Source: Chloroflexia bacterium (GTDB lineage: Bacteria; Chloroflexota; Chloroflexia; QHBQ01; JAICKM01). From it: a stretch of 64,000 nt of DNA. Location of the stretch: NCBI GenBank assembly GCA_050998805.1, contig JBPCPV010000029.1, forward strand, positions 15,768-79,767. The letters are read 5' to 3'. The notes below the pieces were generated by a model that did not search any database, was not told the DNA's origin, and worked only from the letters and a program-made list of their open reading frames with translations. Made by a program: the position numbers and the translations under genes. This document shows, piece by piece, positions 28,421-33,072 of this stretch (position 1 is the stretch's first letter; each line of letters opens with the position of its first letter).

Positions 28421-28483
28421 TATAATGGGGCATCCGGCTGGGCAATATGAAGCCTGCCGGGTGCTTTTCATTTTCTTTTGAGA
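28421..28483 (+). promoter_or_regulatory. extended -10 promoter-like element (TGtTATAAT) followed by an imperfect GC hairpin and a U-rich tract in front of the NERD gene; either the ABC-operon terminator or a leader/attenuator
   Basis: tgtataat at 28419-28426; hairpin ccggctgg...cctgccgg then tgcttttcattttctttt. Confidence 0.35.
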
Positions 28484-28493
28484 GAGGACGGCT

Positions 28494-29990
28494 ATGGCTA
28501 AGATATACATCGGCAACTATGAAGCCGCCGATAAGGGTTTGTTGGAGGCGCTTCGTCGCTTGGGAGACTCGTATCACGTTTTTGTCGAGTTTCAGATACC
28601 GAACCCGCGCGGGCAGCGCCAGGTTGACTTCCTGGTTATCCGAGAGGACCAGGCGCGGCCCTGCATCTTCATGCTCGAGGTGAAGAATGAGCGCCACCGG
28701 CTACGCGGCACGATCAACGGGCCGTGGGAGTATGAAGAGACGGCGGGCGCGTGGCGGCCGCTGCCTGCGTCGAACCCGCGCGACCAGAACCCGATTCAAC
28801 AGGCGTATAACACCGCCCGCGCCATGCAGGCGTGGTTGAGTAGTATGCGCTCGCTGATCCAGGACGGCGACAACCTCTGGCCCGACATCCCCACGGTCTT
28901 CCCGCGCCTTGTCCTGCCGGTTGCCCACGGCGACAATCAGTTGCAGACCGACAGCTTCACCTGGCGCTTCGACAGCTATGAGCGTTGTGTGGAGAGCCTG
29001 AACAACTTCGTCGCGCGCGACCCGGTCTACCTGCGGCCGAGCGAGATCGAGCGGATGGCACATTACCTCGGCGTGCAGCGTCAGCCGGACGCCCCGGCGG
29101 TCGAGGAGCCGGAGATCGGCGAATGGCTGCGGACCCACTACGAGAAGCTCATGGACGAGATCACAGCCTTGCGGCAGGAGGTGCGAGAGCTACGCGCGCT
29201 GGTGAGCAACCGCCCTCCGGCCATTCAGATGCATCAGCGCGTCATCGGCCACTCCGCGCGGTTGTTCGGCCCGCCGCCGGAGCCGACCAGCGACCTGGGC
29301 CAGGCTTACAGGGCGCTCGCCGATGTGGTACACGACCTGGCTGCCGTAGGCCGCAAACTGGTCTTTCCGAACGTGCAGGAGGGTCTGTGGCGGCGGCTTG
29401 GCGAGTTCAACGTCGAGCAGTACGGCTTTTTCAAGTTCAAGGAGTTTCTCCAAGAGGCTGAGAGACGCGGTGTCGTCAGCCTCAGCATGGTGGACGGCGT
29501 GGACTATGTGTCGCTGCCCGGTGAGCAGCCGCAGGCGCTTCCGGGCAGCGCGCCGATCAGCCTCGAAGACCTCACGCCCCAGGAGCGCAACCTCTTCTTG
29601 GAGTCCACCGCCGAGCTGGAGGCGCGTAGCGCCTACATGATCCGCTCGTTCATTGCTCGGCACCTGACTGTGGCCGCGATCTTGCCGCTGCCGATGTATG
29701 AGATACGCGCGCTGGTGAACGATGCCGTGAACCGAGGGCTGTTCCATCGGGGCACGCGCCCCTTCCGCCACCCGACCACCGGTGAGATGCAGAGCCTCGA
29801 AACCCTGACTCTGGACCGCAACCACCCCTGGGTGGCCGAGGCGCTCGGCGAACAGCCGTTGCCCGACGCCGAGAACGAGGACGCCGAACAGGATGCGAAC
29901 CTGCGGCTCGACTCCGGTGGCTGGGACGCTGATTACGGAGCGGAGAACGGCCATGTCCGCGACATCTACGCCGACCCGCACGCCTTCTAG
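28494..29990 (+). CDS. NERD (nuclease-related domain) protein with C-terminal OST-HTH/LOTUS-like RNA-binding domain
   Basis: N-term YHVFVEFQIPNPRGQRQVDFLVIREDQARPCIFMLEVKN fits NERD; central coiled coil; C-terminal ...LWRRLGEFNVEQYGFFKFKEFLQEAERRGVVSL resembles OST-HTH. Confidence 0.55.
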   Translation: MAKIYIGNYEAADKGLLEALRRLGDSYHVFVEFQIPNPRGQRQVDFLVIREDQARPCIFMLEVKNERHRLRGTINGPWEYEETAGAWRPLPASNPRDQNPIQQAYNTARAMQAWLSSMRSLIQDGDNLWPDIPTVFPRLVLPVAHGDNQLQTDSFTWRFDSYERCVESLNNFVARDPVYLRPSEIERMAHYLGVQRQPDAPAVEEPEIGEWLRTHYEKLMDEITALRQEVRELRALVSNRPPAIQMHQRVIGHSARLFGPPPEPTSDLGQAYRALADVVHDLAAVGRKLVFPNVQEGLWRRLGEFNVEQYGFFKFKEFLQEAERRGVVSLSMVDGVDYVSLPGEQPQALPGSAPISLEDLTPQERNLFLESTAELEARSAYMIRSFIARHLTVAAILPLPMYEIRALVNDAVNRGLFHRGTRPFRHPTTGEMQSLETLTLDRNHPWVAEALGEQPLPDAENEDAEQDANLRLDSGGWDADYGAENGHVRDIYADPHAF

Positions 29991-29998
29991 CCCGTCCG

Positions 29999-30784
29999 AT
30001 GCTGCGAACCGTAACGGCGACCCGCTATGACACGCCCCTGCGGGAGGGCGGCTCGCTTCCGGCCATCGTCGAAGCCGACGACGACGGGATGTATGTCGTC
30101 AAGTTCCGGGGTGCCGGACAAGGCCCGAAGGCGCTTATCGCGGAATTGGTCGCCGGAGAAATCGGGCGCGCCATCGGCCTGCCCGTGCCTGAGATCGTCT
30201 TTGTGGAGTTGGACCCGGTGCTGGGACGAACCGAGCCTGACCCCGAGATACAGTCGCTTATGGAGGCGAGCGCGGGGCTGAACATCGGCCTCGACTACCT
30301 CCCGGGGTCGCGGATCTTCGACCCGCTGACCGCGCCCCGGCCCGATGCCGCGCTCGCCTCGGCGGTCGTCTGGCTCGACGCCTACGTTACCAACGTGGAC
30401 CGCACCGCCCGGAACACAAACATGCTGCTCTGGCACAACCAGCTCTGGCTGATCGACCACGGTGCCGCTCTCTACTTCCACCACCGGACAGGCTGGTGGA
30501 CGGACTACGCCGAGCGCAGCCGTAGCCGCTTCCCTGCCATCCGCGAGCATGTGCTACTGCCCTTCGCCGATGCGCTCGAGGAGGCCGACCTGGTGCTGCG
30601 TTCGATGCTGACGCTGGATAAGATCGCCGAGATCGTCGCCGACATACCCGGCTCATGGCTCGATCACGACTCGCCGCCCGACCGGAGCGAGCATCGTGCT
30701 GCATATGTCGGCTACCTGACGGATCGGCTAGCCTCGGCCGGCTTCGTGGAGGAGGCTATAGGTGCCCGCGAAAGCATCGTTTAA
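29999..30784 (+). CDS. HipA-like kinase-fold protein (short, C-terminal HipA-type catalytic region)
   Basis: 261 aa; VKFRGAGQGPKAL..., VTNVDRTARNTNMLLW..LWLIDHGAALYF resembles the HipA_C catalytic loop/DxG region. Confidence 0.5.
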   Translation: MLRTVTATRYDTPLREGGSLPAIVEADDDGMYVVKFRGAGQGPKALIAELVAGEIGRAIGLPVPEIVFVELDPVLGRTEPDPEIQSLMEASAGLNIGLDYLPGSRIFDPLTAPRPDAALASAVVWLDAYVTNVDRTARNTNMLLWHNQLWLIDHGAALYFHHRTGWWTDYAERSRSRFPAIREHVLLPFADALEEADLVLRSMLTLDKIAEIVADIPGSWLDHDSPPDRSEHRAAYVGYLTDRLASAGFVEEAIGARESIV

Positions 30785-31166
30785 CTACGCCATAATCCGC
30801 GTAGTGCCGCGTGTAGAACGTGGCGAGTTCGCGAACGTCGGGGCGATCTTGTTCTGCCGGACGCGCCGCTTCCTGGAAGCCCGGATCGATGCGGACCTTC
30901 GGCGGCTGGCCGCGCTCGACCCCGATCTGGACCTCGCTGAAGTCGCCAGGCAGCTGGAGGCGATCCCGCGGGTCTGCGCCGGGGGGGATGCCGCAGGGCC
31001 GATCGGGCGGCTTCCACAGGCCGAACGCTTCGGCTGGCTCACCGCGCCGCGCAGCACAGTGATCCAGACATCGCCGGTCCATTCCGGCATCTGCGATGAC
31101 CCGGCAGCCGCCCTTGAGCGGCTCATAGAGACAATGGTTAAGAGACCAACAGATAAGGAGATATAA
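30762..31166 (+). CDS. DUF3037 domain protein
   Basis: 134 aa; NYAIIRVVPRVERGEFANVGAILFCR matches the DUF3037 N-terminal signature; overlaps the upstream gene by 23 nt. Confidence 0.6.
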   Translation: MPAKASFNYAIIRVVPRVERGEFANVGAILFCRTRRFLEARIDADLRRLAALDPDLDLAEVARQLEAIPRVCAGGDAAGPIGRLPQAERFGWLTAPRSTVIQTSPVHSGICDDPAAALERLIETMVKRPTDKEI

Positions 31167-31170
31167 GATT

Positions 31171-33072
31171 ATGCCACGCATCGAATCGCTGCTCTCGGCC
31201 CGACTGTTCATCAGCCCGCAACTCGTGGGGGATCGGCTCTACTTCGTCAGCAACATGAGCGGACAACTCAGCCTGTATGCTATGGACGCGACCGGCAGCG
31301 TGCCCGAGCCTCTGCTGCCCGCGCAAATAGCCCTCCCCAACCCGCACCTGATCGGCGGCCTCCCCTTCTATGCCTTCCCGAAGCTCGGCAAGATCATGCT
31401 GATGCTCGACGACGACGGCGACGAGAACTACCAGCCGGTGGTGCTCCCCATCGAGGGCGGCGAGCCGGTGCCCGCCTTCGGCGACTTCTTCGCAAACGCC
31501 CGTGTCCACTGCGCTCACTGCGACCCGGAGACGAACACCGTCTACCTCTGGTCGGAATCGCGCAGCGAGCAGCTCGTGACGACCTACAAGGGGCACCTCG
31601 ACACCGGGGCGCTGGAGAAGCTGGGAGAGAGCGCCTGGGGCAGCTACCCCGACGGGGTGAACGCCGCCCAGAGCCGGGGTATCCTGACGGACGGCTACAC
31701 CGTCGGCGACCAGGTGCTCTATGAGTGGGTCGAAGGCGGCAACGGCGAGCGCAAGCTGCTCTACGGCGTGCCCCTGGAGGAGCGCGCCGAGGAACAAGAT
31801 GTGCCGCTCAACAGCATCGTCCAGTGCTGGTGGACGCCCGGCGATAAGGGCCTGCTGTTCAGCACGTCGCTCTTCACCGACAGCTACGGACCCGGCTATA
31901 TGCCGCTCGACCCGCCCCGCGAGATCGAGCCGGTCGCTGTCGTCGGCCAGGTACACTCAGGGGCCGGAGAGATGGACAAGCTCGAGCAGCTTGACGACGA
32001 TCGCTACATCGTCGGCTACAACATTGACGGCTGCTCCTGGCTCTACGAGGCCCGCTTCGACGAGGCTGCCCGGACGCTCCATCTGGAGCGGGCGCTGGTC
32101 GGCGAGGGAGAGTTGGCCGGCGGAGAAATGGAGTCGGTCTACTACGACAAACCCGGCGACCGCTTCACGCTGGCCCTGGCTACGGCAACTTCTCCGACGC
32201 AGATCTATGTGATAAACAAAGACCGCAGCTTGCGTGCGCTCACGCGGGAGAAGATCCTCGGCGTGCCCGCAGAGCATCTCTCGCCCGGCGAGGATGCTTC
32301 GTTCACCTCATTCGACGGGCTGCGGATTTCTGCGCGGCTCTATATGCCCTCACCCGCGCTTGGCTTCGAGGGGCCGCGCCCCCTGGTCTACTACATCCAC
32401 GGCGGGCCGCAGGGCCAGGAGCGCCCGAACTACGCCTGGTTTTCGATGCCCCTGATCCAGTTCCTCGCTCTCAACGGCTTCGCGGTCTTCGTGCCGAACG
32501 TGCGCGGCAGCACCGGCTACGGCCTCAGCTACACGAAGCACATTGACCGCGACTGGGGCGGCCAGGACCGGCTCGACCATGTGGAAGCGATGCGCCGGCT
32601 CGCCGAAGACCCACGGCTCGACACCAAGCGTGCGGGCGTGATGGGCCGCTCCTACGGCGGCTACATGACGCTCACCCAGGCCACGCGCCACCCCGAGCTC
32701 TGGGCGGCTGCCGTCGAGATGTTCGGGCCATACGACCTGACTACCTTCGTGGCCCGTGTGCCCGAGACCTGGAAGCCGTACTTCGATCTTGCCGTCGGCC
32801 ACCACGAGCGGGATCGCGACCTCCTCCTCGAACGCTCGCCGCGCACCTACATCAACGACCTCCGCTGCCCAATGCTGGTGATCCAGGGGCAGAACGACCC
32901 CCGCGTCATTGAGCGCGAGTCCCGCGACGTGGTGGAGCAGCTACGGGCGGCGGGCAAGCAGGTTGAATACCTTGTCTTCGCGGATGAGGGCCACGACGTG
33001 CTGAAGTTCCCGAACCGCGTGGTCTGCTACAACGCGATCACCGACTTCTTCAAGCAACATCTGTGCCCGTGA
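31171..33072 (+). CDS. S9-family (prolyl oligopeptidase) serine peptidase with N-terminal beta-propeller
   Basis: GRSYGGYM nucleophile elbow, YIHGGPQG, C-terminal DEGH; starts 4 nt after the DUF3037 stop. Confidence 0.8.
   Translation: MPRIESLLSARLFISPQLVGDRLYFVSNMSGQLSLYAMDATGSVPEPLLPAQIALPNPHLIGGLPFYAFPKLGKIMLMLDDDGDENYQPVVLPIEGGEPVPAFGDFFANARVHCAHCDPETNTVYLWSESRSEQLVTTYKGHLDTGALEKLGESAWGSYPDGVNAAQSRGILTDGYTVGDQVLYEWVEGGNGERKLLYGVPLEERAEEQDVPLNSIVQCWWTPGDKGLLFSTSLFTDSYGPGYMPLDPPREIEPVAVVGQVHSGAGEMDKLEQLDDDRYIVGYNIDGCSWLYEARFDEAARTLHLERALVGEGELAGGEMESVYYDKPGDRFTLALATATSPTQIYVINKDRSLRALTREKILGVPAEHLSPGEDASFTSFDGLRISARLYMPSPALGFEGPRPLVYYIHGGPQGQERPNYAWFSMPLIQFLALNGFAVFVPNVRGSTGYGLSYTKHIDRDWGGQDRLDHVEAMRRLAEDPRLDTKRAGVMGRSYGGYMTLTQATRHPELWAAAVEMFGPYDLTTFVARVPETWKPYFDLAVGHHERDRDLLLERSPRTYINDLRCPMLVIQGQNDPRVIERESRDVVEQLRAAGKQVEYLVFADEGHDVLKFPNRVVCYNAITDFFKQHLCP

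Follow-up and report, generated by a model that had tools for sequence, protein, structure and literature searches.

A conserved kinase-DUF3037 gene pair, likely of the HipAD/PDC-M66 type, within a lineage-specific four-gene cluster of a Chloroflexia bacterium

Do four closely spaced genes on a Chloroflexia chromosome form one system, or are they neighbours with separate histories? The window, a stretch of 64,000 nucleotides, contains four co-oriented open reading frames at 28494-33072, confirmed on the + strand, that encode a NERD and OST-HTH-like protein (g1), a HipA_2 kinase (g2), a DUF3037 protein (g3) and an S9 peptidase (g4). A sequence-only reading had taken them for a four-gene candidate toxin-like or defence module that matched no nameable system. 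Its spacings of -23 nt (an overlap) for g2/g3 and 4 nt for g3/g4 are correct, while its 9 nt for g1/g2 is actually 8 nt. The features are:

28421-28426, + strand: perfect TATAAT hexamer, read from the sequence, 8 nt past the stop codon of the upstream ABC exporter gene
28428-28466, + strand: GC-rich hairpin (RNA fold dG -29.8 kcal/mol, z -2.3)
28467-28480, + strand: U-rich tract directly after the hairpin
28494-29990, + strand: g1, 498 aa, NERD (PD-(D/E)xK-type) nuclease-like domain, coiled coil and two winged helices
29277-29540, + strand: divergent OST-HTH/LOTUS winged helix of g1, about aa 262-349; the second winged helix spans about aa 362-440
29999-30784, + strand: g2, 261 aa, short HipA_2-family Ser/Thr kinase, putative toxin
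30748-30784, + strand: translational-coupling junction, with the Shine-Dalgarno (SD) sequence and start of g3 inside g2
30762-31166, + strand: g3, 134 aa, GTG start, DUF3037-only, putative antitoxin or regulator of g2
31171-33072, + strand: g4, 633 aa, S9-family serine peptidase/hydrolase

The core pair, g2 and g3, belongs to a toxin-antitoxin-like anti-phage family that has already been described, and g1 and g4 are local neighbours. The cluster as a whole is likely a lineage-specific juxtaposition of three independent units rather than a four-gene system, with g2-g3 as the sole evolutionarily coherent unit, probably HipAD/PDC-M66-like. What survives of the earlier proposal is the toxin-antitoxin or defence type of the central pair; the four-gene unit falls away, and the pair does have named counterparts in the PADLOC candidate PDC-M66, in DS-6/HipAD and in the Retron-Sda1-associated pair.

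The domain assignments made at first were essentially right, except that Pfam places the HipA-like kinase g2 in HipA_2 (PF20613, E 2.4e-20) and not in HipA_C. The catalytic residues of g2 are conserved: its Gly-rich loop (G38-A-G-Q-G-P-K44), catalytic loop (D134-R-T-A-R-N139) and D153-H-G motif consist of residues at least 97% conserved among 77 sequences. The protein also matches phrog_3162 and is homologous to the protein annotated as HipA toxin in phage PhiR5_1 (25% identity, E 3e-12); the profile detects no direct similarity with canonical HipA or with any kinase of solved structure (PDB). The DUF3037 assignment of g3 is borne out (E 1.4e-46), and g3 is homologous to HipD of the same phage (E 7e-10), although it lacks the C-terminal extension of about 150 aa found in HipD, in DS-6B and in the PDC-M66B profile. 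A PADLOC scan matches g2 to PDC-M66A (E 2.7e-25, profile positions 9-204 of 270) and g3 to PDC-M66B (E 3.6e-12, positions 3-132 of 281), and returns no match for g1 or g4.

The junction between the two genes is itself conserved. The SD of g3, GGAGGAGG at 30748-30755, is written in the codons of the kinase's conserved F-V-E-E-A, and the GTG start at 30762 creates an overlap of 23 nt (30762-30784). Because g3 starts 23 nt inside g2 behind an embedded SD, the two are tightly coupled in translation, and the coupled junction presumably fixes the g2:g3 stoichiometry. The exact 23-nt overlap recurs in 58 of 80 loci, and a GGAGG-type SD stands at the equivalent position in 65 of 77.

A relative occurs in at least 592 of 185,579 species. 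The loci sampled, which cover at least nine phyla, are the best-scoring 80 of at least 592, a choice that biases conservation figures upward. A DUF3037 gene lies directly downstream of the kinase in all 80, and the two proteins co-vary (pairwise identities correlate at r = 0.69). Identity lies in the range 56-73% across Chloroflexota, Acidobacteriota, Cyanobacteriota, Pseudomonadota, Myxococcota, Bacteroidota and others. The pair is independent of its neighbours: the 144 immediate neighbours represent 168 Pfam families, and no family occurs in more than five loci. The four-gene architecture is not conserved: a g1-like NERD gene near the pair is found in 0 of 80 loci, and an S9 gene keeps company with the pair in one close Chloroflexia lineage only. 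Elsewhere a g4-like gene is near the pair in 2 of 80 loci, in each case weak, distant and on the opposite strand.

HipAD, the HipA toxin and HipD antitoxin of E. coli prophages, reportedly described by Brenes and Laub in 2025, also goes by the name DS-6. In phage PhiR5_1 (PV340545.1), the annotated HipA toxin and HipD antitoxin genes adjoin cI. As in the window, the gene after that of a HipA_2-family kinase overlaps it and encodes a protein that begins with DUF3037; the two proteins are distant homologues of g2 and g3 (24-25% identity). HipD has 275 aa with a C-terminal extension, whereas g3 is a DUF3037 domain alone; DS-6B is described as DUF3037 plus DUF1829. The genes of HipAD overlap by 4 nt rather than 23, HipAD is prophage-borne whereas the window pair is chromosomal among housekeeping genes, and the phage HipA is without the HipA-like GAGQGPK loop that g2 has. 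Mutating the predicted catalytic kinase residue of DS-6/HipAD abolished defence, and AlphaFold3 predicts that its A and B proteins interact (PMC13092281, DefensePredictor).

A strong association links DUF3037 to HipA-like kinases; the PADLOC name for the pair is PDC-M66 (PMC12548924). The window proteins match both PDC-M66 models in the right order but span them only in part, and PDC-M66 is itself a computational candidate. For the Retron-Sda1-associated pair, likewise a two-gene kinase/DUF3037 unit and one that functions alone, deletion of the kinase abolishes defence and deletion of the DUF3037 gene is toxic (PMC12548924). Compared by description, its DUF3037 protein differs in having a C-terminal region like a retron type III DNA-binding protein, and a retron RT and ncRNA are linked to that pair. 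Canonical HipBA and HipBST offer a further comparison. Viewed by eye, VAGAQEKT, DGHAKN and YD of E. coli HipA look analogous to GAGQGPKA, DRTARN and IDHG of g2, which is short like HipT and is without the HipA N-terminal subdomain. In contrast to both systems, the window pair has no HipB-type HTH antitoxin, g2 has no sequence-level match to HipA or PDB kinases, and its partner is encoded downstream of it, not upstream. The kinase family of g2 falls outside the Hip kinase phylogeny of 2021.

By analogy with these systems, we infer that g2 is toxic and neutralised by DUF3037, with a trigger and target of the following kind. Judging from homology to HipAD/DS-6, PDC-M66 and the Retron-Sda1 pair, g3 would bind g2 and keep it inactive. 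Loss of this restraint through phage infection or other stress would release the kinase, which would then phosphorylate a target essential to the cell, probably one in translation, like those of HipA and HipT. Growth would stop, and the infection would be aborted or dormancy induced. Some observations speak against a toxin-antitoxin or defence reading: the low identity to validated systems and missing C-terminal half of HipD, and also the unusual conservation, the absence from defence islands and from IMG/VR hits, and the undetectable similarity to canonical HipA.

The alternative that survives best, though we rate it as rather unlikely, is that the short-form HipA_2/DUF3037 pair has no toxin-antitoxin or anti-phage role. 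It would instead be a physiological module of kinase and regulator, strongly constrained and spread long ago, such as a switch for stress or dormancy that targets a conserved protein of the host, and DUF3037 would serve as cofactor, substrate or sensor instead of antitoxin. The short, DUF3037-only form of the pair is indeed unusually conserved, at about 60-70% identity across phyla, and scattered among housekeeping genes. Besides the cross-phylum identity given above, this alternative draws on nearly flat values among the best-scoring loci (66% within and 61% between phyla, the nearest neighbour by identity being in the same phylum for 62 of 76) and on 78 of 259 kinase columns conserved at 95% or more. 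Neighbours are housekeeping genes with few defence matches, not defence islands; a pattern scan of IMG/VR found no relatives in viral contigs; the pair sits on only a handful of large plasmids or chromids; and DUF3037 carries a conserved Cys32/Cys72/His107/Cys111 set absent from HipD. Against it, the two proteins share homology and gene arrangement with pairs whose toxin/antitoxin behaviour and defence have been shown by experiment. The distribution is patchy, the genomic context varies as expected of an accessory cassette, and one relative adjoins a BrnT/CopG toxin-antitoxin pair and a transposase fragment. A HipAD/PDC-M66-like pair is the reading we retain.

Whether the unit extends to g4 depends on the close relatives. 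The S9 assignment of g4 holds (Peptidase_S9, E 3.8e-41; triad Ser494/Asp576/His608), while the propeller claimed with it finds no support, the N-terminal approximately 380 residues matching no Pfam model. In one related Chloroflexia lineage (loci L095/L096), orthologues of g2, g3 and g4 (71%, 68% and 65% identity) keep order and strand. Together with the gap of just 4 nt between g3 and g4 in the window, this would fit a functional unit of kinase, DUF3037 and S9 peptidase in this clade, the peptidase for instance degrading the DUF3037 antitoxin or processing the kinase target. Such a cassette is improbable: the gap in the relative is 124 nt, the similar divergence of all three genes is what simple vertical descent of one piece of chromosome would produce, and g4 has a strong SD of its own, AAGGAG at 31155-31160, within the non-conserved AT-rich tail of g3. 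Moreover, an S9 gene is not adjacent to the pair in 80 other loci, Chloroflexia L012, L017, L035 and L067 included, nor in L097-L100, and the peptidase has no PADLOC counterpart. g4 is an ordinary S9 peptidase, syntenic by chance in close Chloroflexia relatives only.

g1 stands apart from the conserved module: it is specific to Chloroflexia and joins a NERD nuclease to OST-HTH/winged-helix domains. Both of its originally proposed domains essentially hold. NERD is matched by Pfam (E 1.8e-9), with invariant residues E32, D45 and E62-x-K64. Pfam does not reach OST-HTH in the whole protein and scores the isolated segment below threshold (E 0.017, 15.5 bits against a cut-off of 23.8); the OST-HTH call is supported by a LOTUS fold match and by transitive homology to NYN/OST-HTH proteins. 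The C-terminal domains are modelled at an AF2 pLDDT of about 90, and Foldseek superposes the first winged helix on the TDRD7 LOTUS domain 3rco (target-normalised TM 0.79, probability 1.0). Among 39 proteins matching g1 residues of about 258-460, a region homologous to the C-terminal module, with OST-HTH, of NYN-domain proteins, 22 have NYN and 20 a significant OST-HTH match; their nuclease head is NYN, that of g1 NERD.

The g1 family is tiny and Chloroflexi-restricted, whereas the pair spans many phyla, and g1 homologues of 39-78% identity sit in other contexts where the pair is absent. At 498 aa, g1 is shorter than homologues of 65-77% identity (557-643 aa) and has a shorter acidic C-terminal tail, and nucleotide homology to the closest relative sets in only a few bases from where g2 starts; both fit a rearrangement junction. 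That all four genes make up one novel module, with the NERD/OST-HTH nuclease as sensor or effector and the peptidase as accessory, is very improbable and largely refuted by the missing co-occurrence, in the 80 loci and in the closest relatives, despite the co-orientation, the small gaps, the absence of detected internal + strand terminators and of a detectable SD or promoter for g2, and the general occurrence of both NERD and HipA-like domains in conflict systems. With neither an internal terminator nor an internal promoter detected, the four genes may still share one transcript at this locus. Their surroundings consist of housekeeping and cell-envelope genes and do not form a defence island.

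Upstream of g1, the hairpin and U-rich tract of the proposed leader are real. The extended -10 (TGnTATAAT) is rejected as canonical, leaving only the perfect TATAAT, since TG directly abuts the hexamer (TGTATAAT); neither a -35 element nor a sigma-70-type site registers there in the promoter scan. The hairpin matches no Rfam family, and the SD GAGAGAGGA stands between the U-rich tract and the g1 start. Hairpin and tract may end transcription of the ABC operon or serve g1 as a leader element, perhaps the attenuator first suggested; similar hairpins and U tracts lie upstream of g1 homologues in loci L009, L004/L010 and L005.

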